Assembly (NCBI RefSeq): GCF_024223415.1
Contig: NZ_CP100500.1
DNA: 64,000 bases
Strand: one strand, 5' to 3'
DNA from: Escherichia coli
Lineage (GTDB): Bacteria > Pseudomonadota > Gammaproteobacteria > Enterobacterales > Enterobacteriaceae
Part shown: in pieces, positions 48,062 to 63,356 of the stretch
Layout: each line of letters starts with the position of its first letter
Position numbering within the stretch: the first letter of the stretch is position 1
Made by a program: the position numbers and the translations under genes
The notes under the pieces: model-generated
Databases searched by the model: none
Seen by the model: only the letters and a program-made list of their open reading frames with translations
Told to the model about the DNA's origin: nothing

Positions 48062-48256
48062 TTACAGCAACTGGTGAGGGCTGGCATAAGTTGCCGGTGT
48101 TTCGGTAGAGTCACGGTCATCCACCACGCGGAGTGAATAACCTTTTTCAGCGGCCTTATTAATCAGTTCAGTGATATTAACACCATCAATGTCAACGGCA
48201 ATGTGCCCCATATCCAGCGCCTGTACGTTAACGCTGTCGGCTTCCAGTGTCATCAT
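48062..48256 (-). CDS. yeeW: prophage protein YeeW
   Basis: 64-aa ORF recognised as YeeW; start overlaps the cbtA stop. Confidence 0.7.
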   Translation of the reverse strand: MMTLEADSVNVQALDMGHIAVDIDGVNITELINKAAEKGYSLRVVDDRDSTETPATYASPHQLL

Positions 48257-48626
48257 TTCGCCTCCGGATACTTACCCAGGGTAATGTTATTTACCGTTCT
48301 GTAATTGTCGCGGGTCATCAGGCCGGTCGCCCTGCGAGCCCGGAGGATATCGATGCTGTTTATTAACTGAGAGCGGGTACAGGCGCTGAATCCCGGCTGG
48401 TCGGTAGCACCAGCGCGTATTTTTCCACGAGAAAGTTCACCGCATCACACAGTGAAATGCCTGCCTCAATATGCTGCTCAATCACACGTTCATCGGCAAA
48501 AGGTGTGTCATTCAGTGTGAGGCCATAGTGCTGGTCCAGCAGTCGGGACAGCAGTATCTGCCAGATTTCAACAGGAGACGGGCGAGAACTGGTCGCCTGC
48601 CCGGGTAATACAGGTAATGTTTTCAT
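48253..48626 (-). pseudogene. cbtA: frameshifted type IV toxin cbtA (yeeV)
   Basis: ORF 48363..48626 matches CbtA through …[10 protein letters not shown] and then diverges; the expected C-terminus ([40 protein letters not shown]) reads in another frame. Confidence 0.7.
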
Positions 48627-51535: not shown

Positions 51536-51946
51536 TTAGATTTTAAGTTTGTCCTGGGCTACAACGACAGGTTTTCCGGATGTGTCGATGACTCCTACCG
51601 TCGGTACGCCATTTTTGATTTCGAAGAACGGTTTGTTGCTACCTGAGCACAGTTGATTGTCCCCGTATTCAATCATTTGTGCTTTCCCGGTTTTCAGGTT
51701 AACTACCGAGACAGTGTAGTCGTAGCACCAGGCACCACCACGTTCAAGCACGAAAACATAGCTGTTATCTTTATAGTTGAACTGATTCTTTGTCTGGCAA
51801 TTCATACCGTCAATTTCGGTACAGGAAAACGCTTCTGTAGTATTAACGTATTTGATGTTATTTGGCAGTTTTACTTGTTTCGCAGTAGCGAAGACAGAGA
51901 ACAGAATAGTTACAGCAACGAGTAAAGTTTTGATAAAAGTTTTCAT
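51536..51946 (-). CDS. hypothetical secreted protein
   Basis: 136-aa ORF with a typical Sec signal peptide (MKTFIKTLLVAVTILFSVFATA), four Cys, low GC. Confidence 0.5.
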   Translation of the reverse strand: MKTFIKTLLVAVTILFSVFATAKQVKLPNNIKYVNTTEAFSCTEIDGMNCQTKNQFNYKDNSYVFVLERGGAWCYDYTVSVVNLKTGKAQMIEYGDNQLCSGSNKPFFEIKNGVPTVGVIDTSGKPVVVAQDKLKI

Positions 51947-51961
51947 GATAGACTCCTTAAA

Positions 51962-52450
51962 TTAGTTAAACGCAGCTACGTAGTTTTTCACCAGATACGC
52001 GAATTCATGCACGCCAATTTCACCGAACCAAACCAGGTAGGCCGGGTCATCTAAACCAAAGTAACGGTAGCCAACAACTTCATGGGTTTTTGGGTTATAG
52101 AGTGTTACGATAAAGTCCCAGCCGCAGGTATTGGCTTTGCAACCGTCGCCCTGGAGCCAGACTGTATCGTTAATGTTTACTGGCGTGATACCTCCACCAG
52201 GGCCATCCATATAGCCGCCTTTACCGAACATGCCGCTCAGTCCGACCGGTTTTAATGCTTTGTCGATAGCGGCTTTGTAGGTAGCGTCACCTTCGTACAA
52301 CTCGTACGTTGATGGACACGCTCCAGGTTGTTCAGCCCAGGCTTCCGGGTTACAACTAAGTGCTTGTTTTACGGTAGCCGCTTCTGCGTTAAAGTTAAAG
52401 CCCGTGAACAGAACCGCCAGAAATAACATAAGGGTATGTAAACGTTTCAT
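51962..52450 (-). CDS. hypothetical secreted Cys-rich protein
   Basis: ORF 51962..52753; probable start at MKRLHTLMLFLAVLFTGFNFNAEA (signal peptide) gives about 163 aa; six Cys in the mature part. Confidence 0.5.
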   Translation of the reverse strand: MKRLHTLMLFLAVLFTGFNFNAEAATVKQALSCNPEAWAEQPGACPSTYELYEGDATYKAAIDKALKPVGLSGMFGKGGYMDGPGGGITPVNINDTVWLQGDGCKANTCGWDFIVTLYNPKTHEVVGYRYFGLDDPAYLVWFGEIGVHEFAYLVKNYVAAFN

Positions 52451-52780
52451 TGTAAATATTCTTCCGTTGTAAATGGCGCTGGAAAATTTCTCATCAGTGA
52501 AACCTTCCGGAAGTTTCCCCCCCTTGTATGATGTATATCGCCAGTATTTTATTTCATCCCGGCTGTAATTTTTATATTCCCCGGCACGTGCAATAACGCT
52601 GACCAGAGATATAAGGCTCATTAATAACTTTACAGGTAATTTCATAATTAAATTTCCAGTGAGTGAATTGACAGGTGAGGGGTAAAACTTTCTCTCAGGT
52701 AATATATATCTGAAAATATTTTCAATAACACCAGACAGGAAAAACACCACCACAGGCGGTGGCGTTTCTTTGGGGCGTCT

Positions 52781-53851
52781 TTATTTAATCCGGGCCATCG
52801 CGTTTCTCAGTGCCAAATCTGCCTCTTCCGTTATATCCAGGCTTTTCTGCAATACCGCCTCTGACCGGGTCAGTGCCTGACGTGCTGCCAAGGGGTTCCG
52901 GATATGCTCCATCGTCAGCATCGTGTCTTCATAGCCCTGCTGACGCCAGATGTCGGTATGTGCCGATGTAAAACTGAGCAGACCGCCACTTTTGCCTTCT
53001 TCCCCTGTGTGTTTCAGCCTTTTCCGGGGACGGATTTCAAGGATTGTGGTGTCCGGAAAAGCCCGGCGATCCCATAAAGAACCGTCACTCAGATGCGTCA
53101 CAATCACCATATTGCATCCGGCATCGACCAGAGGCGTTACAGGGGTATTTCCCTGCATATTTCGCCATCCTCCCATCCCACCATCACCGAACATTGTCCC
53201 CTGAACCTCACGGGGATGGAACAACAGGGGCAGTGCGGCTGACGCAAGCAGAGCCTCTTTCTGCTGTCCGCGGGGCAGACTCTGGATATGCTGAAAAACG
53301 GCGTTTTTCGTGGTTCCGGCACCCAGTTCAGCACGAATGCAGTCAATAATATCCTGCATGCCCCCTTCTGTGGGGTACAGCGACACATACAGCGGTAGCC
53401 CGTCTGCCAGAGCATCAGTATCAAGATAATGATCCATCAGCGCTGTCAGAGGCTCATCTGACAACAGCGGCTGAGCCATCGGATTGTCGAAGCCGTTGAT
53501 TATCGATATATGGCGAAGAAGTATCGTAAGCAGTGCTCCTGCACGTCCGGGGATCTGGCAGAGGTTCATTGCCTGGAACAATTTTTTCAGCAATGAAAAG
53601 TAAACCGATCGGTTTACCGACAGCACCTGATTATTCCCCAGATGATCCCAGAGCGCCTCCAGGCGTACGGCAGCTTCTGACAGATCGGGAGAGGCCGCGA
53701 TAATGGCACCATTGAATGCGCCAATGCTGGCCCCTGAAACCATGCTGATCTGTGTACCACACTCTGCCAGTGCCTTAACCACTCCCGCCTGATAAGCGCC
53801 CACCGCCCCGCCACCGGACAGCACCAGCCCCGTTTTCATTTCTGTACTCAT
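52781..53851 (-). CDS. patatin-like phospholipase
   Basis: 356-aa ORF with glycine-rich oxyanion loop (SGGGAVGAYQAG), GxSxG nucleophile motif (GASIG) and catalytic DGG (FGDGGMGG); no signal peptide; start overlaps the upstream gene's stop. Confidence 0.8.
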   Translation of the reverse strand: MSTEMKTGLVLSGGGAVGAYQAGVVKALAECGTQISMVSGASIGAFNGAIIAASPDLSEAAVRLEALWDHLGNNQVLSVNRSVYFSLLKKLFQAMNLCQIPGRAGALLTILLRHISIINGFDNPMAQPLLSDEPLTALMDHYLDTDALADGLPLYVSLYPTEGGMQDIIDCIRAELGAGTTKNAVFQHIQSLPRGQQKEALLASAALPLLFHPREVQGTMFGDGGMGGWRNMQGNTPVTPLVDAGCNMVIVTHLSDGSLWDRRAFPDTTILEIRPRKRLKHTGEEGKSGGLLSFTSAHTDIWRQQGYEDTMLTMEHIRNPLAARQALTRSEAVLQKSLDITEEADLALRNAMARIK

Positions 53852-54753
53852 GCAGCCCCCTTCTGAAATATTTCATCGACCATACTTTCAGAGAGGCGTT
53901 CTGCAGAGCAGAGGCGAGGCATGCGAACCGGTAAGTGTTCTGCAGCCTGCGTGGTTGACCAGATCACCGGATGCTGCTCTTCACTGCACCAGTCTCCCAG
54001 CCAGTTAATCGCGTCATGCCACTCGTTATCTGCCTGCTCCCGGCCCTGACCACCAAGCCAGTCCAGAGTGTTCAGACGCACGGTTGCACTACCGCCACTC
54101 TCCTGTGCCATCTGCGTTAATGCTTTATGTCTGAGAATATCCAGTAGCTGGTTAACCTGGCCTGTTTCGCTCTGACGTATCACATCACCAAACGCGCCCC
54201 AGCGAAGCTCTTCAAGTGCCACATAACAACGTCCGGCAGGGGAAAATGACGCATATCGCCCGGCGCTCCACCATGAGAATATCTGCTCAAGATGTAACTG
54301 CGCCCGCTGAACCTGGTCAACACGGTGGAGTTTTTCTTCAAGATGATTCAGTTTATGGTGAACCTGATCGGCCAGGGTGAGTAACTGCTCCCGCGTATCT
54401 GCGGAATAATGCGCCAGCCTGGCTGTATCACTGACCAGTGAACTGACCCTGTCGTTTACCCGGGTAATCGCGTAGTTTGTGGTGGCAAGTGACGTTGTCA
54501 TCTCCGTCAGCCAGCGCAGGGACGCCTCAACGCCCTGTGCAAGCGACGCATTGATGGCATTCTGCCGTGCAGCGCCTTCGCCGGTCAGCCCCTCTTTTAA
54601 ACGCCGGAAGAACGTGCGCTCTCCGGCCGTGCGGATATGCTCCTGTGCAACATCGATTCCGTTTGCGAAATCAACCACAAATTTTTCAGGAAGACAGGTG
54701 AGTACCTGACATACCCGGTTATCAGCAATTTGTTGAATAAATGGTGAAGTCAC
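53848..54753 (-). CDS. hypothetical protein (partner of the dynamin-like GTPase)
   Basis: 301-aa ORF, predicted alpha-helical, GTG start overlapping the stop of the upstream gene (GTGA) with a GGAGA RBS about 10 nt upstream. Confidence 0.55.
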   Translation of the reverse strand: MTSPFIQQIADNRVCQVLTCLPEKFVVDFANGIDVAQEHIRTAGERTFFRRLKEGLTGEGAARQNAINASLAQGVEASLRWLTEMTTSLATTNYAITRVNDRVSSLVSDTARLAHYSADTREQLLTLADQVHHKLNHLEEKLHRVDQVQRAQLHLEQIFSWWSAGRYASFSPAGRCYVALEELRWGAFGDVIRQSETGQVNQLLDILRHKALTQMAQESGGSATVRLNTLDWLGGQGREQADNEWHDAINWLGDWCSEEQHPVIWSTTQAAEHLPVRMPRLCSAERLSESMVDEIFQKGAA

Positions 54754-57146
54754 AGCATTGTCTCCAGCTCTTCCCTCAGCGCCTTACTGTCAGTAATGAG
54801 CTCAGGAACCCTTTCATTTAATGCCTGAAGTCGCCCGGTAAGTCGTTCCTGCGCCTGCTGATCGCGTTTATGATCTTCAGAGCTCTGAATCAGCGTGTTA
54901 CGCAGTTGTTCAACTTTCTCCCTGAATGCGCAGAAAAAGGCATCGATTTCCTGGCGGACGGGCTGGTTAATATCCTGCTCAATGGATGCCTGCAGCTCCC
55001 CGAAATATGCCCGGGTCAGTGACATAACTTCCTCTCTGACCTTGTTGATATTGATCACGCTGCGACTCACATCCTCGTCATAGTTTTCCCAGCCCAGGTC
55101 ACTGGTGCCAAACCATCGACAAACGGTTCCCCATACGCCACTCTGCCGACGGCGACGGGTGACGGTCTCCGTTCTTTCCTCCATAAGCGCACTCAGATTT
55201 ATTTTTACCGCGAGCCGGGTCTGTAACTGGCTGACTGCCGGAAAACTGATTTTTACGGTAAAGCCCTCATCCTCCAGGCGGGCATTGATGCGACCGGCAA
55301 TGTTTTCTGTGGCGTACAGGGCCGTGCCACGAAAACCTGTTTCAATCCCGCTGACGATTTTCTCCAGCTCAGGCCGGAACTGTGCTTCAGCCTCACGGTG
55401 CAGGCTGGTCACGGTCGATTCGATTTGCGTCATCAGTTCAAGGGCTTCCCTGCGATCACTGAATTTTATTTCGGGGCTGTCCGGGGCAAAATCTCGTTTC
55501 CTGTAATCCTCCCGGCCCTGGTTGTTGATACCGGACCATTGAGAAATTTTCCCCCATAATCCGGACTGAGACCTTCGTTGTTCTGCGTCTTCTTCCTCCA
55601 GCATTTGCTGTTCTTTGCGTTTACCGCTTCTGAAATAGTCATTCAGCTCCTCTTCCAGTGAGGTGCAGACCCCCGTCAGTAATTCCCGGGTTTTAGTATC
55701 GATCTCCTCCATGGCCATTCTGACATCAGTGGTCATCTGCTCCTGACAGTCCGCGATTTCCCGGATATCCGCAAGCAGGCTGGTGATATGCGACTGCAGT
55801 GACTGAATGCTTTGCTGTAGCCCCTGATGGCGTAACAACAGGTATTCACTGATATTTTCTGCATTCTGCATCAGTTTTGCGGCGGCAGAGTCAACCGCCA
55901 GTGCCGCAGCTCTGGAATGTGAGCTCTGTATGACTTCCGTTATCAGTTGATCGATAAGTGAGCCTTCCCACAGGTCTGTCGCCCCTTCAGTTGCCAGTTC
56001 ACTGTCTTTACAGACGTATTCTTTTTTCATGCAACCGAAGGCACCTCTGATAAAATCATCGACCCAGGCTTCATCAACAGGAAGGGTTCCGTTTTTCCGT
56101 AACTCATGAAGCGCACGGTTAGCCAGGTATGCCTGGCGTGAGGATCCGGGATAAACGCGGGAGGCGGGCAGCACATCGCTGTTCAGCATTGCCGGAACTT
56201 TCTGGCGTACGGCATCTGCCCCATCGCCATTGCGGTCTTTCTCATCAAATTTATTGACCAGTACAAACAGGCGGCCGGCTGATACGTCAGCAATGGCATT
56301 AAGCTCTTTACGGACGTCTTCATCCGCTTTTGAGTTCATCTGGGTGTAATCCATCACAGCCAGAACCGCAGAGGCTTTCTGCAGTTGATCCCGCATCATC
56401 ACTTCCATCTGCGGTTGTCCGGCCTCATTAGGGCCGGGGGTATCCAGCAGTGTGAGTGTTCCCTGGCATGCATCCATCCCCACCAGATGGCTGAATTCCA
56501 CGTCGATCACCGGCAGTTTCTGCACTTCTGCGTATTCATCAAAAGGAAATTCAGTCCCCATTGCCGCAGCAAGACGAACCAGATCGTTTAACGATGCCAG
56601 TCCGGTAAAGATTTCCTCCTCCCCGTGGTATTCATTTTTGAGCCAGCCATCATCCGTCAGAATATCCAGCAGTTCGCGGGTATCCCCGGTTTGCTGCAGG
56701 GTCTGTGCGACCTGCTGTCCTGCCGGGGTGGCGAGTTTTTCCTGCAGTGTGATTAATAAATTGCGGACAGGCTGAATATGTTCCAGATGGAGAACCGGCT
56801 CAGTTTTTCCGGGAACGTGGCGGATGAGCGTCGGTACAGAGGTCATGGGGCGGTTACGGTTAGGCAGAATTTCCTGCCCCACAATGGCGTTGATGGTGGT
56901 TGATTTGCCTGCTTTCATCGTGCCGACAACAGCCAGCACCATCTCCCTGCGGGCGGTTTTGATTTGTTCGCCCTCCAGCTCCTCAATTCTTTTCAGTGCT
57001 TTCTGTTTATCAAAAAGCAGTCTGTTTTCGTTCTTACTGTCAGATAACACATCTGGCTCCTCAACCATTTGCCGGAGCAGATTAATGTTCAGTTGCAAAA
57101 GTCGGTCGGCTTCATCACAAAGCAGGGCGATGTTCTTTTCGTGCAT
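54750..57146 (-). CDS. dynamin-like large GTPase
   Basis: 798-aa ORF with G1 P-loop (GTMKAGKST), switch-I Thr, G3 (LLDTPG) and G4 (LVNKFD) in the N-terminal third, then long helical/coiled-coil regions. Confidence 0.8.
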   Translation of the reverse strand: MHEKNIALLCDEADRLLQLNINLLRQMVEEPDVLSDSKNENRLLFDKQKALKRIEELEGEQIKTARREMVLAVVGTMKAGKSTTINAIVGQEILPNRNRPMTSVPTLIRHVPGKTEPVLHLEHIQPVRNLLITLQEKLATPAGQQVAQTLQQTGDTRELLDILTDDGWLKNEYHGEEEIFTGLASLNDLVRLAAAMGTEFPFDEYAEVQKLPVIDVEFSHLVGMDACQGTLTLLDTPGPNEAGQPQMEVMMRDQLQKASAVLAVMDYTQMNSKADEDVRKELNAIADVSAGRLFVLVNKFDEKDRNGDGADAVRQKVPAMLNSDVLPASRVYPGSSRQAYLANRALHELRKNGTLPVDEAWVDDFIRGAFGCMKKEYVCKDSELATEGATDLWEGSLIDQLITEVIQSSHSRAAALAVDSAAAKLMQNAENISEYLLLRHQGLQQSIQSLQSHITSLLADIREIADCQEQMTTDVRMAMEEIDTKTRELLTGVCTSLEEELNDYFRSGKRKEQQMLEEEDAEQRRSQSGLWGKISQWSGINNQGREDYRKRDFAPDSPEIKFSDRREALELMTQIESTVTSLHREAEAQFRPELEKIVSGIETGFRGTALYATENIAGRINARLEDEGFTVKISFPAVSQLQTRLAVKINLSALMEERTETVTRRRRQSGVWGTVCRWFGTSDLGWENYDEDVSRSVININKVREEVMSLTRAYFGELQASIEQDINQPVRQEIDAFFCAFREKVEQLRNTLIQSSEDHKRDQQAQERLTGRLQALNERVPELITDSKALREELETML

Positions 57147-57363
57147 TATTTAACCTTCCTAAGACGCATTTTCATGACAACCACGGAGGAGGTCATTTAC
57201 TACAAACGATCGTTTATAACGATCGATATGATAGTAACGATCGATACATTCTATTAACTTGAGAAACACAACGCAAGGGGACAACCCGGGTATGGCTGCG
57301 TTTGCATAGTGTTTTCATGGAGTTAAAAATCTGTAACAACAGCCTGGTACATCACCACCGGGT

Positions 57364-58280
57364 TCAGAAGAAAATCCAGTTCCATACCGCGCGGGCAACA
57401 GAGACCACCGAGTCACGGACGGCGCGCAGAACCGTGCGTGCAACAGAGGCAATGCAGACGCTCTCCGCCGTGTCAAATATCCGGTCCACCGCACCGGTAA
57501 ACTGTTCACGGGCCTGAGACCGGACAGACTCCGTGCGCAGCTCGTCCTGCAGGCGGGTCATCAGGGGACTGGCGGCATGGTCGGGAAGTGCTGTCATGAG
57601 CGCACTGACCAGCGTATCCAGTTCCCAGCCGGTGCGGGCCGATACGGCAACAACCCGATGTACGGGCCGGAACAGACGGAATACCGCCTCCGTTTTTTCG
57701 CGAATGTTCTGTGCCTGTGCGGGAGAAGGCTGAATACCGGCCATATCCCATTCATGGCAGGGCTCCGTTTTATCGGCCTGCATCACCACAAACAGTACCC
57801 GCTGATGTCCCCGGTGCAGGATGTGTCGCCAGAAATACTCATCCACAGACAGGGCACGGTCATCGGCTTTAATCAGCCACAGTACCAGGTCCAGTTCGAG
57901 CAGAATGTCACGGTACAGGGCTTCATACTCTGCATCCCTGTCCCGGCTCTCGCCCACCCCACCCCGGGCAGGTCAGTGATAACCATGCTGTGACCATGGC
58001 CATTCAGACGGAAGCGCTGCACTTCCCGGGGGCCGGCGTGAACATCACTGACCGGGGTGACCTCCCCCTGAAACAGCGCATTACAGAGTGAGGATTTACC
58101 GGCCCCGCTTTTACCCATAATGCCAGGCACGGGTTCGTGACTGGTGAGTTTGCGCAGATGTTCCAGGATGTGACGGGAAAGTGAGTAAGGCAGGGAGGAG
58201 AGCGGTTTTTCAATTGCCTCAATGGCATCAGACGGATTCATACATGTATTCCCGGTGAAAAAAGACAAAACCCCGCGCAC
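57364..58280 (-). pseudogene. YeeP/YfjP/YkfA-family small GTPase, frameshifted
   Basis: N-terminal part with P-loop (GKSGAGKSS) and DLPGVG in ORF 57873..58280; C-terminal part in overlapping ORF 57364..57957 in another frame; break coincides with a tandem ACCCC-ACCCC repeat. Confidence 0.7.
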
Positions 58281-61043: not shown

Positions 61044-61427
61044 ATGCGCGCTAAAGAAAGACTTCCCCGGAAACACTATTCCCCTGAATTCAAAATGGAA
61101 CTGGTCAGGCTGGCTCTTGAAGAAGAAGGCAGTATTGCCGCACTGGCCCGGAAACATGACGTCAATGATAACCTGCTCTTTAAATGGATAAGGCTCTGGC
61201 AGCGTGAAGGGCGGGTCTGTCGGCCCCGAAAAAACTCATCGTCGCTTCCTGCCCTGATACCCGTGCAGCTTCAGGCGGGCTCTTCTCTCCCAACCTTCGA
61301 ACTACCATCCTGCTCTCCTCCCGCTACCTGCCACATAAAATGTCGGGGAGGAGAAATAACACTGACTCATCCCTCTGCTGAACTCATGAGCACTGTCCTG
61401 CGCGAACTGATGCGGGGGCCTGTATGA
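61044..61427 (+). CDS. IS66-family accessory protein (orfA, HTH)
   Basis: 127-aa ORF with N-terminal transposase-type HTH (RKHYSPEFKMELVRLALEEEGSIAALARKHDVNDNLLFKWIR). Confidence 0.8.
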   Translation: MRAKERLPRKHYSPEFKMELVRLALEEEGSIAALARKHDVNDNLLFKWIRLWQREGRVCRPRKNSSSLPALIPVQLQAGSSLPTFELPSCSPPATCHIKCRGGEITLTHPSAELMSTVLRELMRGPV

Positions 61428-61771
61428 TAAATCTTCCCGCAGGCACAAAAATCTGGCTGGTTGCCGGTATCACCGATATGCGCAACGGCTTCAATGGCCT
61501 CGCCGCAAAGGTGCAGACCGCGCTGAAAGATGACCCGATGTCCGGCCACGTCTTCATCTTCCGGGGACGCAGCGGCAGTCAGGTAAAACTGCTCTGGTCC
61601 ACCGGCGATGGTCTGTGCCTGCTGACAAAGCGACTAGAACGTGGTCGCTTCGCCTGGCCCTCAGCCCGCGATGGCAAAGTGTTCCTGACGCTGGCGCAAC
61701 TGGCGATGCTGATGGAAGGTATCGACTGGCGACAGCCAAAGCGGTTACTGACATCCCTGACCATGTTGTAG
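61424..61771 (+). CDS. IS66-family TnpB (orfB)
   Basis: 115-aa ORF with the conserved TnpB signature (LPAGTKIWLVAGITDMRNGFNGL); 4-nt overlap with orfA. Confidence 0.85.
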   Translation: MINLPAGTKIWLVAGITDMRNGFNGLAAKVQTALKDDPMSGHVFIFRGRSGSQVKLLWSTGDGLCLLTKRLERGRFAWPSARDGKVFLTLAQLAMLMEGIDWRQPKRLLTSLTML

Positions 61772-61820
61772 CGCTCTTTATCCTGGTTGTCGCAGAATAA
61801 GCCTGGTAAAATACAGGCTT

Positions 61821-63356
61821 ATGAACGACACCTCTTCTGACGACATCCTTCTGCTGAAACAGCGCCTGGCCGAACAGGAAGCGTTGATCCACGCCCTGCA
61901 GGAAAAGCTGAGCAACCGGGAACGCGAAATAGACCATCTGCAGGCGCAACTGGATAAGCTGCGCCGGATGAACTTCGGCAGTCGTTCCGAAAAGGTATCC
62001 CGCCGTATCGCGCAAATGGAAGCTGACCTGAACCTGCTGCAGCAGGAAAGCGATACGCTGACCGGCCGGGTGGATGACCCGGCAGTGCAGCGCCCGCTGC
62101 GTCAGACCCGCACCCGCAAACCGTTCCCTGAGTCACTCCCACGGGATGAGAAGCGGCTGCTGCCGACTGAGCCGTGTTGCCCGGAGTGCGGTGGTTCGCT
62201 GAGTTACCTGGGTGAGGATGCCGCCGAACAGCTGGAGCTGATGCGCAGCGCCTTCCGGGTTATCCGGACAGTCCGTGAAAAGCATGCCTGCCGTCGGTGC
62301 GATCGCATCGTTCAGGCCCCGGCTCCTTCGCGCCCCATCGAACGGGGGATCGCCGGACCGGGGCTGCTGGCCCGAGTGCTGACCTCAAAGTATGCAGAGC
62401 ACATACCGCTGTATCGCCAGTCGGAGATCTATGCCCGCCAGGGTGTAGTGTTGAGTCGTTCTGTACTGTCGGGCTGGGTGGATGCGTGTTGTCGTCTGCT
62501 GGCACCGCTGGATGAAGCCCTTCAGCACTATGTCCTGACCGACGGCAAACTCCATGCTGACGATATGCCTGTCCCGGTGCTGTTGCCGGGCAATAAGAAG
62601 ACGAAGACCGGGCGCTTATGGACGTACGTTCGAGACGACCGCAACGCCGGATCAGCGCTGGCCCCCGCAGTGTGGTTCGCTTACAGCCCGGACAGAAAAG
62701 GTATCCACCCTCAGACCCATCTTGCAGGCTTCAGTGGCGTACTGCAGGCTGATGCCTACGCCGGGTTCAACGAGCTCTACCGCGACGGCCATATAAAGGA
62801 AGCCGCGTGCTGGGCCCATGCCCGCCGAAAAATCCACGATGTTCACGTCCGTACCCCGTCAGCCCTGACGGAGGAGGCGCTGAAACGGATCGGCGAGCTG
62901 TATGCCATCGAGTCGGAGCTCAGAGGTAAAAGAGCAGAGGAACGGCAGGCAGTCCGGCACCAAAAAGTGCTGCCGCTGCTGGCGTCACTGGAGGGGTGGC
63001 TGCGGGAGAAACAGAAAACCCTCTCAAGGCACTCAGAACTGGCGAAGGCGTTCGGGTATGCGCTGAACCAGTGGCCGGCGCTGACCCGCTATGCAGAAGA
63101 TGGCTGGGTGGAGGTGGATAATAACATTGCCGAAAACGCCCTACGACTGGTCAGTCTGGGGAGAAAAAACTGGCTGTTCTTCGGCTCGGATCATGGTGGT
63201 GAGCGCGGTGCGTCACTGTACAGTCTTATCGGGACGTGCAAATTAAACGGCGTGGATCCGGAACGCTATCTGCATCATGTACTTGATGTCATCGCCGACT
63301 GGCCTGTGAACCGGGTGGGTGCTCTGCTCCCGTGGCGGGTTACTCTGCCTGCCTGA
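61821..63356 (+). CDS. IS66-family transposase (orfC)
   Basis: 511-aa ORF with N-terminal leucine-zipper-like region, zinc-finger Cys pairs (CPECGG…CRRCDRI) and the IS66 DDE-type core. Confidence 0.9.
   Translation: MNDTSSDDILLLKQRLAEQEALIHALQEKLSNREREIDHLQAQLDKLRRMNFGSRSEKVSRRIAQMEADLNLLQQESDTLTGRVDDPAVQRPLRQTRTRKPFPESLPRDEKRLLPTEPCCPECGGSLSYLGEDAAEQLELMRSAFRVIRTVREKHACRRCDRIVQAPAPSRPIERGIAGPGLLARVLTSKYAEHIPLYRQSEIYARQGVVLSRSVLSGWVDACCRLLAPLDEALQHYVLTDGKLHADDMPVPVLLPGNKKTKTGRLWTYVRDDRNAGSALAPAVWFAYSPDRKGIHPQTHLAGFSGVLQADAYAGFNELYRDGHIKEAACWAHARRKIHDVHVRTPSALTEEALKRIGELYAIESELRGKRAEERQAVRHQKVLPLLASLEGWLREKQKTLSRHSELAKAFGYALNQWPALTRYAEDGWVEVDNNIAENALRLVSLGRKNWLFFGSDHGGERGASLYSLIGTCKLNGVDPERYLHHVLDVIADWPVNRVGALLPWRVTLPA

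Follow-up and report, generated by a model that had tools for sequence, protein, structure and literature searches.

Within a 64,000-nucleotide (nt) stretch of Escherichia coli contig NZ_CP100500.1 (the whole analysed stretch is called the window below), three consecutive minus-strand genes encode a dynamin-like GTPase, a protein of the YjcZ/RdcB family, and a patatin-like phospholipase. Analysis of this operon and its relatives suggested, with moderate confidence, that the three genes constitute a mobile anti-phage module of the abortive-infection type. Comparison of gene order across sequenced genomes showed that the three-way co-inheritance of these genes (the trio) is strict across at least six bacterial phyla, and in a rough survey, made without a genome-wide score, the trio was found recurrently next to known defence systems on mobile islands.

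The mechanism that we propose refers to a paralogous pair in E. coli K-12. RdcA (also named CrfC) and RdcB bind the diguanylate cyclase DgcE and switch it on; RdcA is active when free of nucleotide and is inhibited by GTP, with the K82A mutant functional and the T103D mutant dead, and RdcA was reported to be soluble and to sense the fall in GTP at stationary-phase entry (PMC6510439). In the trio, the patatin phospholipase would be the effector, which once unleashed degrades the inner-membrane phospholipids of its own cell. The YjcZ/RdcB-like protein would act as an adaptor that holds and controls the lipase, and the dynamin-like GTPase as a switch or sensor that, by analogy with RdcA, is held inactive by bound GTP and licenses its partner enzyme upon hydrolysis or loss of GTP, as when the GTP pool falls. 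Alternatively, the GTPase may be triggered by oligomerising at a membrane perturbed by infection. We infer phage protection, killing by the lipase, gating of the lipase through direct binding by RdcA' and RdcB' (labels coined here for the 798- and 301-amino-acid [aa] proteins), and the nucleotide or membrane trigger. The lipase is considered the business end because variants carrying YjcZ and lipase genes without a dynamin gene exist and because the catalytic dyad of the lipase is invariant. A housekeeping role is disfavoured by the mobility of the trio and by its defence-island context.

Operon anatomy and the three proteins

The genes and the putative expression signals of the operon are as follows.

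54750..57146, minus strand: gene 1 (RdcA'), 798-aa dynamin-like GTPase, ATG start
53848..54753, minus strand: gene 2 (RdcB'), 301-aa YjcZ/RdcB-family protein, GTG start
52781..53851, minus strand: gene 3, 356-aa cytoplasmic patatin-like phospholipase, ATG start
57228..57257, minus strand: promoter-like site TTAATA-18 nt-TATCAT (weak, sigma-70-like), from a consensus scan of the 217-bp gap upstream of gene 1
57205..57245, minus strand: operator-like repeats, ATCGATCGTTA twice (57235-57245 and 57217-57227) and the palindrome CGATCGTTATAAACGATCG, overlapping the -10 element
52745..52761, minus strand: terminator-like GC-rich hairpin CACCGCCTGTGGTGGTG followed by TTTTTCC, 20 nt past the patatin stop codon

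These three overlapping open reading frames (ORFs) agreed exactly with the original prediction, in the order 54750-57146, 53848-54753, and 52781-53851 on the minus strand. At the junction of genes 1 and 2 (ATG CTG TGA), the GTG start of gene 2 lies inside the end of gene 1 (GTGA overlap), and at the junction of genes 2 and 3 (GCA TGA), the ATG start of gene 3 lies inside the end of gene 2 (ATGA overlap). The three ORFs are regarded as real genes, not chance ORFs, because their products match the Pfam families Dynamin_N, YjcZ, and Patatin. A ribosome-binding site (AGGAAGG) is located about 8 nt 5' of the gene 1 ATG, and a gap of 217 bp separates the dynamin gene from the yeeP-like gene upstream. 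The position of the promoter-like site in this gap fits an operon-specific promoter; the consensus scan found 5 such sites in the region against 6.6 expected, which makes the site weak evidence. The two ATCGATCGTTA repeats are kept in Escherichia albertii and are not found in Pectobacterium or Plesiomonas, and no further copies were detected elsewhere in the window. Judged from this sequence anatomy, the locus is a self-contained three-gene operon, and the GTGA and ATGA overlaps, the upstream promoter-like site and ribosome-binding site, and the downstream hairpin all bear out the earlier claim of a single transcription unit.

Analysis of the gene 1 product revealed a Pfam Dynamin_N domain at residues 71-299 (E 1.6e-17), and the NCBIfam CrfC/RdcA model (NF007368) aligned with the protein end to end (E 1.2e-166) at 556.2 bits, half the curated cut-off of 1146 bits. 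By these matches the protein is a member of the RdcA/CrfC family and no equivalog, and it shares 33% identity with K-12 RdcA across 744 residues. The G1, G3, and G4 motifs on which it had been called a GTPase were all found (G75xxxxGKS82, D235xxG238, and N298KxD301), together with G2 (T102), and the four motifs are invariant in 23 trios of several phyla. In the AlphaFold2 (AF2) model (pLDDT 79), the G domain is followed by a helical neck/trunk (stalk) with long helices at residues 413-531, 565-626, and 700-797, and Foldseek ranked the bacterial dynamin-like protein (BDLP) structure 2j69 (1.3e-13), SynDLP, IniA, and the mitofusins as the top folds. No transmembrane (TM) segment or hydrophobic paddle was detected in the protein (maximum KD19 1.16). 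An Arg/Trp-rich hairpin at residues ~660-690, in the helical stalk-like C-terminal half, is conserved among the dynamins and sits roughly at the membrane-paddle position of BDLPs. A second Trp-rich motif, at residues 523-547, was considered and dropped, as it falls in a variable, low-confidence linker. In two Acinetobacter trios (L015 2930-4525 and L042 3137-4612), an extra CrfC-like GTPase gene of about 500 aa (NCBIfam CrfC E 2e-122), which covers the G domain and a portion of the stalk, immediately precedes the full-length dynamin gene, and this tandem pair is reminiscent of DynA or LeoBC.

Gene 2 encodes a full-length member of the Pfam YjcZ family (PF13990, residues 26-296, E 4.7e-70), so that the 301-aa protein, earlier described as having no recognisable motif, clearly belongs to a known family. 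It is 30% identical to K-12 RdcB and is named 'diguanylate cyclase regulator RdcB family protein' in RefSeq. The YjcZ family is small, with 653 clusters at 50% identity among 1.84 billion representatives; among the best 150 clusters, 3 are nearest to K-12 RdcB. No fold match to the family was found among solved PDB structures.

Gene 3 encodes a protein matching Pfam Patatin (PF01734) at residues 9-239 (E 7.2e-24). The motifs GGG13-15, G40-A-S42-I-G44, and D223-G-G are invariant across 23 trios, and the C-terminal region is also conserved. With its GxSxG and DGG motifs intact and with neither a signal peptide nor a TM segment, the protein agrees with its earlier description as a cytoplasmic patatin-like phospholipase; its closest solved relatives are PlpD, VipD, and ExoU. 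None of the three trio proteins carries a TM segment or signal peptide, and PHROGs contains no family for any of them. Public names of the three proteins are misleading and include 'CrfC', 'RssA', 'diguanylate cyclase regulator RdcB family', 'ferredoxin reductase', and 'chemotaxis protein'. The label 'ferredoxin reductase' is attached in public records to shortened E. coli versions of the lipase, and 'chemotaxis protein' to the YjcZ-like gene on some plasmids. Several E. coli YjcZ-patatin or dynamin-patatin 'fusions' look like products of deletion or frameshift, not real fusions.

The fold of gene 1 also bears on an unlikely explanation centred on the dynamin, in which this protein would keep the membrane sealed or stable under phage lysis or pore stress, and YjcZ and the lipase would only tune the dynamin or remodel lipids for it. 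Such a role would suit a BDLP/mitofusin-like protein with an Arg/Trp-rich hairpin roughly where BDLPs bear the paddle. DynA of Bacillus subtilis is described as delaying the lysis of infected cells, and a membrane-protective reading was offered in a study of E. coli strain MP1 (PMC12922286). Several features of the trio argue otherwise: YjcZ and lipase genes occur without the dynamin (loci L177 and L018, described below), no trio-type dynamin and YjcZ pair lacks the lipase among loci with room for it, the catalytic dyad of the lipase does not vary, no TM segment or hydrophobic paddle was detected in the dynamin, and the K-12 paralogue is a reportedly soluble regulator of an enzyme (PMC6510439).

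Distribution and co-inheritance of the trio

Lipase homologues with 46-65% identity were found in Pectobacterium, Yersinia, Erwinia, Plesiomonas, Providencia, Budvicia, Vibrio, and Pseudomonas, and in every context examined for them, a Dynamin_N protein of about 800 aa and a YjcZ protein of about 300 aa precede the lipase. A scan with a lipase alignment against one genome per species (100,044 species) returned 80 loci, which were then searched locally with hidden Markov models. The dynamin-YjcZ-lipase order was present in 24 of the 80 (20 with a full-length dynamin, 3 with a dynamin cut by the contig end, and 1 with a fragment), covering nearly every lipase of at least about 37% identity and some down to 33%. 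These loci come from five phyla, represented by Gamma- and Betaproteobacteria, Campylobacteraceae, Cyanobacteria (Tolypothrix, Scytonema, and Anabaena), Bacillales (Cytobacillus and Paenibacillus), and Bacteroidia. The exceptions to the order are a Brasilonema locus, with a broken lipase gene and undetected partners, and the Acinetobacter locus L018; more distant lipases have no partners. Synergistaceae lipases (35-40% identical) were rejected as trio members, as they lie outside the trio clade and have a DacA-like gene upstream and no partners.

The same linkage was observed from the side of the middle gene. A metagenome scan with a five-sequence YjcZ alignment returned 80 loci, of which 75 are complete trios and 5 are cut at a contig end; none of the 80 has space for a partner yet lacks it. 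Because many of these loci are near-identical E. coli contigs, only about 40 of them are informative. Co-occurrence elsewhere had been named in the original prediction as a check on the operon, and the trio in the same order was recovered both in the 24 species-scan loci and in the 75 metagenome loci. In 29 loci from other taxa, with gene starts set by a simple rule, the genes overlap by -1 to -17 nt (mostly -1, -4, or -8) at 18 of 29 dynamin-yjcZ junctions and 24 of 29 yjcZ-patatin junctions. The pairwise identities of the three proteins also correlate with one another (r = 0.87-0.93, 23 complete trios).

Of 5426 complete E. coli genomes, 2442 carry the trio (coverage of at least 80%), at up to five places each; K-12 lacks it. 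Comparison of E. coli with E. albertii gave dN/dS values of 0.24, 0.10, and 0.28 for genes 1, 2, and 3, respectively, and together with the conserved motifs these values showed that, at the sequence level, the GTPase and lipase catalytic motifs are intact and under purifying selection. Integrases are found among the trio neighbours. A tblastn search with the YjcZ protein matched 44 plasmid records from Klebsiella, Enterobacter, E. coli, and Citrobacter; many of the matches are a 62%-identity variant, and most of the listed records annotate a dynamin and a lipase alongside. The plasmids concerned are of IncFII and other types, and the trio lies near their replication genes. A tblastn search of 50,697 phage genomes gave no match and a scan of IMG/VR with the YjcZ alignment likewise gave none, so we conclude that the module is not carried by phages.

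The breadth of this distribution speaks to the very improbable reading of the trio as a virulence or interbacterial weapon, in which an ExoU/VipD/Tle-like lipase would be exported as the effector and the dynamin would help to release vesicles or toxin, the role proposed for LeoA of enterotoxigenic E. coli. The pathogenicity-type island location in E. coli, the identity of the nearest solved lipases (PlpD, VipD, and ExoU), and the presence of type VI secretion genes 5-7 kb away in two loci are in line with it, but unrelated transport genes separate those secretion genes from the trio. A virulence role is disfavoured because no secretion signals are present and because the trio occurs in free-living taxa: no signal peptide, TM segment, linkage to a secretion system, or immunity gene was found, and trios are carried by free-living cyanobacteria, soil Bacillales, and marine or environmental metagenomes.

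Defence neighbourhoods and comparison with known systems

The genes around related trios support the anti-phage reading. In Amphritea atlantica (L020 1077-15720), a type II Zorya system ends 58 bp upstream of the trio and the Druantia gene druE starts 185 bp downstream (PADLOC ZorA2 E 3e-188, ZorE E 2e-128, and DruE, a 2162-aa helicase, 3e-103); this context is a textbook defence island. A Vibrio trio lies 3 kb from the bacteriophage exclusion (BREX) genes for BrxL/PglZ, a Pseudomonas trio lies near BrxR and an ADP-ribosylglycohydrolase, an Enterobacter trio near Mrr and PDDEXK nucleases, the P. matsuisoli trio near a type I restriction enzyme (1e-275), and the trio of one metagenome contig accompanies McrBC. 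Other neighbours include the candidates PDC-M27, PDC-S68, and PDC-S01, and 11 of 30 further neighbours have a PADLOC match at E <=1e-5. With Zorya, Druantia, BREX, restriction systems, WYL regulators, and JukA near related trios, the defence-cargo context proposed earlier for the operon is well reflected in other genomes.

A WYL-domain regulator is the commonest neighbour family (13 of 53 non-redundant loci) and is often the gene immediately upstream, in the same orientation. Among the genome-scan loci, it was found in 5 of 23 trio loci versus 1 of 55 partner-less control lipase loci (Fisher p = 0.008). The WYL regulators BrxR and CapW are known controllers of defence systems. Since E. coli has no adjacent WYL gene, another regulator, possibly phage- or island-encoded, may bind the putative operator formed by ATCGATCGTTA and CGATCGTTATAAACGATCG.

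A JukA-like gene (PADLOC JukA E 1e-45 to 1e-61) follows the lipase gene by 3-60 bp in 5 loci. In locus L177 (6001-8630), beside parE/parC, a JukA-like domain (DUF3944 plus a Cbp3-like part, MsyB-like by NCBIfam) is fused to YjcZ, and the trio-type lipase gene that comes next overlaps the fusion gene; there is no dynamin. The Acinetobacter locus L018 also lacks a dynamin and comprises a WYL gene, a 413-aa protein, YjcZ, and the lipase; the 413-aa protein has no convincing similarity to the dynamin profile (probability 11%) or to any library. As dynamin-less YjcZ-lipase variants exist and no lipase-less trio-type locus was found among those with room for a lipase, YjcZ and the lipase form the constant core and the upstream component is exchangeable. 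Experiments support JukA as a sensor that acts early in jumbo-phage infection and is combined with different effectors; the Juk preprint lists versions of JukA fused to a patatin lipase or to a coiled-coil domain without a name, and WYL and restriction-modification genes as the commonest neighbours (10.1101/2022.09.17.508391). The L177 fusion may correspond to that coiled-coil domain ('UD1'). The trio thus resembles Juk in the 5 loci with a JukA-like gene and in the L177 fusion, but the window operon has no JukA gene, most trios have a dynamin upstream, JukB is absent, and the JukA-like gene or fusion occurs in 6 related loci only.

Comparison with other systems revealed likeness in kind and difference in composition. 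Eleos (LeoA plus LeoBC, also called 'Dynamins') likewise places dynamin-superfamily GTPases in defence islands, and its P-loop mutants abolish defence (Millman et al. 2022), but it is built from two or three dynamin-like proteins and includes neither a lipase nor YjcZ, whereas the window operon has one dynamin gene. PADLOC LeoBC matched residues 29-89 (the P-loop region) of the gene 1 product only (E 8.6e-5), LeoA gave no match, and by fold LeoA ranked 39th against the gene 1 model, behind BDLP, SynDLP, IniA, and the mitofusins. The link to Eleos suggested originally therefore narrows to the superfamily level. The parallel drawn with CapV of the anti-phage signalling system based on cyclic oligonucleotides (CBASS) fared similarly. 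CapV is a cytoplasmic patatin-like phospholipase that is silent until activated and then degrades its own membrane, as we propose for the trio lipase, but the gene 3 product falls outside the CapV family (NCBIfam CBASS_lipase 18.6 bits, cut-off 200), and the PADLOC phospholipase effector matched its N-terminus only (8.4e-5). Unlike CBASS, the trio has no gene for a CD-NTase (cGAS/DncV-like nucleotidyltransferase) or for a nucleotide second messenger, and activation would proceed through protein partners.

A recent transcriptome study (PMC12922286, January 2026) described two 'dynamin family - RdcB family - phospholipase' operons in E. coli MP1, one in PAI-CFT073-aspV and one in a second island; the MP1 loci concerned are SID94_19700-19720. 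The cluster, called a 'five-gene cluster', was the most strongly up-regulated in Kapi1 lysogens; its authors noted about 30% identity to RdcAB and EcoKI and Druantia as neighbours, named it a 'putative dynamin defence system', and suggested that the dynamin acts while the other two proteins regulate it (PMC12922286). The MP1 operon is equated with the window operon by description, and its induction in lysogens shows expression of the operon and a response to a resident phage. That work differs from the present one in being the transcriptome of one strain, without cross-taxon analysis or any link to WYL, JukA, or the origin of rdcAB. The trio genes are also listed in passing in a paper on an island of Shiga toxin-producing E. 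coli O118, and searches of the literature on dynamin-patatin operons and defence, on YjcZ, RdcA, and CrfC, and with RefSeq accessions returned no functional study of the trio. The original statement that no described system combines a dynamin with a patatin lipase holds for PADLOC-DB v2 (v2.0.0, 2023), in which the trio proteins have only P-loop or N-terminal fragment matches and no model; it does not hold for the E. coli operon, which had been noted in PMC12922286. The domains and the logic of the trio, an NTPase switch with a phospholipase effector, are of known kinds. The searchable literature does not describe its composition, the putative YjcZ adaptor family, how widely and strictly the three genes are linked, the association with WYL and JukA, or the likely origin of rdcAB.

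A further explanation, which we regard as improbable, is that the trio is a non-immune stress or addiction module with no relation to phage, which would sense the GTP pool in stationary phase or starvation and remodel lipids or kill its own cell, thereby stabilising islands and plasmids or adapting membranes. The K-12 paralogue does sense the drop in GTP at stationary-phase entry (PMC6510439), trios lie near replication genes on IncFII and other plasmids, the trio of the CP4-type island is located beside a CbtA/CbeA toxin-antitoxin pair, and genomes can hold multiple copies. The recurrent partners of the trio, however, are phage-defence genes, WYL regulators, and a JukA fusion, not plasmid-maintenance genes; moreover, the trio has no small labile antitoxin-like partner, and the operon is induced in lysogens (PMC12922286).

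Several points weigh against an anti-phage, lipase-centred module. To our knowledge, E. coli library screens against T4, T7, and lambda have not reported the trio, despite its presence in about 45% of strains. PADLOC-DB v2 holds no model for any of the three proteins, and the survey of defence neighbourhoods covers a sample, against a control that is only rough. The 2-5 copies found in several genomes are unusual for a suicide system. Some E. coli copies are decayed: E. coli O157:H7 SS17 has a decayed copy (L171 10970-15471), in which a deletion fused cah to the dynamin gene, and a plasmid copy with an insertion sequence (IS1) 67 bp upstream encodes an N-terminally shorter dynamin (743 vs 798 aa). 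The SS17 fusion joins a C-terminally truncated cah, encoding an Ag43-like autotransporter, to an N-terminally truncated dynamin, with the rdcB-like and lipase genes intact behind the inactivated first gene; it indicates that an Ag43-type gene and the trio can share a slot and that copies decay. The adaptor role proposed for RdcB' has the dynamin-less YjcZ-lipase variants L018 and L177 as its sole basis, and in the paralogous system the contact with the target enzyme is made by RdcA and not by RdcB (PMC6510439). The induction signal in MP1 is partly affected by multi-mapping reads (PMC12922286).

If the anti-phage reading is true, nearly half of sequenced E. coli, including O157 and islands of the uropathogenic type, together with Klebsiella and Enterobacter plasmids, would carry a defence system missing from PADLOC-DB v2.0.0 and noted only briefly in publications. 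It would also represent a new control of a patatin lipase, by a dynamin-like GTPase and an adaptor, and would parallel eukaryotic immunity, where dynamin-family GTPases (Mx and guanylate-binding proteins) and patatin domains (effectors of fungal and plant nucleotide-binding leucine-rich-repeat receptors) are found. For the YjcZ family, of about 650 clusters at 50% identity, it would provide a testable hypothesis.

Relation to RdcA/RdcB and setting of the island

Comparison of the trio with K-12 RdcA/RdcB revealed extensive similarity. Both comprise a dynamin-like GTPase of about 750-800 aa followed by a translationally coupled YjcZ protein of about 300 aa, with full-length homology; the trio dynamins retain the G1 lysine and G2 threonine that had been targeted by mutation in RdcA; the proteins are soluble; and the logic is that of a GTPase pair controlling a separate enzyme. 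They differ in that the trio encodes the controlled enzyme in its own operon, a patatin lipase and not a membrane diguanylate cyclase, and in that the trio locus is mobile and patchy, whereas rdcAB is fixed at yjdM-rdcAB-proP. The trio dynamin also lies below the CrfC cut-off and lacks the QLALP motif. CrfC binds the beta clamp via 41-QLALP (PMC6374313). This motif is found only in K-12 RdcA and is missing from all 25 trio dynamins, including that of the window.

The clusters closest to K-12 RdcB (two beyond K-12 itself) have the syntenic chromosomal arrangement yjdM-rdcA-rdcB-(kdgT)-proP without a lipase. In neighbour-joining trees, which are distance-based and midpoint-rooted without an outgroup, the K-12 pair falls inside the gammaproteobacterial trio clade, beside trios of Budvicia, Serratia, and Enterobacter, with bootstraps of 80/100 for the GTPase and 68/100 for YjcZ. 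This nesting and the far wider distribution of the trio suggest that rdcAB is derived from the trio, likely as a lipase-less, domesticated offshoot and not its ancestor. The earlier view of the operon as a diverged crfC-yjcZ paralogue that had recruited a lipase is upheld in its first part, by 33% and 30% identity and membership in the CrfC and YjcZ families, while the direction of the second part is probably reversed.

The homology to RdcA/RdcB raises the question whether RdcA' and RdcB' provide a second input into cyclic di-GMP signalling, regulating DgcE or another diguanylate cyclase, with the lipase incidental. Full-length homology and the RefSeq naming are compatible with this reading, which we nevertheless hold to be highly unlikely: the identity is just 30-33%, the score against the CrfC equivalog model is half the cut-off, the linkage to the lipase is obligatory in distant taxa of five phyla, the true rdcAB lineage is separate, chromosomal, syntenic, and lipase-less, and 41-QLALP is missing from all 25 trio dynamins.

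A broader and more tentative extension of the anti-phage reading, less probable in our view than not, is that YjcZ-patatin is a plug-in 'suicide lipase' cassette with interchangeable sensors, either the dynamin-like GTPase or a fused JukA, and that the housekeeping RdcA/RdcB-DgcE switch of E. coli, which governs biofilm and includes the replication-fork protein CrfC, descends from this immune module after the lipase was lost and the pair rewired to a diguanylate cyclase. The dynamin-like sensor, used in most lineages, would then read either the GTP pool or damage that infection does to the membrane. If correct, this would give a testable origin of RdcA/RdcB (CrfC), for which clamp binding and DgcE activation have so far been hard to reconcile.

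In the window, the operon occupies a slot in a CP4-44-type island next to tmaR-yeeA-sbmC-dacD-sbcB, the position of CP4-44 in K-12; the window sequence shares 100% identity with E. coli Combat11I9. The island order is a frameshifted yeeP-like GTPase gene, the trio, two hypothetical ORFs, a DUF932 gene, an antirestriction gene, yeeS, yeeT, cbeA, and cbtA, in agreement with the slot between the yeeP-like and DUF932 genes to which the operon had first been assigned. The yeeP-like gene (57364-58280, minus strand) consists of two overlapping ORFs, 57873-58280 and 57364-57957, and is annotated as frameshifted in RefSeq. A homologous MMR_HSR1 GTPase gene flanks the trio in Pseudomonas (L003 9915-10889) and Pectobacterium (L006 1-268) and belongs to the island backbone.

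The two hypothetical ORFs are located directly downstream of the trio.

51536..52753, minus strand: two low-GC (44-47%) ORFs of at most 263 aa and of 136 aa, with signal-peptide-like N-termini

Of 5426 E. coli genomes, 1879 have them; the O157 SS17 copy lacks them, and no recurrent neighbour family corresponding to them was recovered from the other genera covered. The 136-aa product matches phrog_8968 (function unknown), and neither ORF has a PADLOC match, JukA included. They may be E. coli-specific passengers or accessory genes outside the conserved trio, and they might be the extra members of the induced 'five-gene cluster' of MP1.

The multi-copy nature of the trio may also yield false variant calls and multi-mapping of RNA sequencing reads. 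In a resistance-evolution study of E. coli ATCC25922, 122 variants were reported in 'crfC', 75 in 'rssA (patatin)', 10 in 'yeeP', and 3 in 'yjcZ' (PMC7696260). This gene set is that of the island module, and the accumulation of variants probably reflects mis-mapping of reads between multi-copy paralogues, not selection. Elsewhere in the island, cbtA (48253-48626, minus strand) of the CbtA/CbeA pair is frameshifted according to the RefSeq annotation of the identical strain, and an IS66-family element, tnpA-tnpB-tnpC (61044-63356, plus strand), interrupts the island upstream of the yeeP-like gene.

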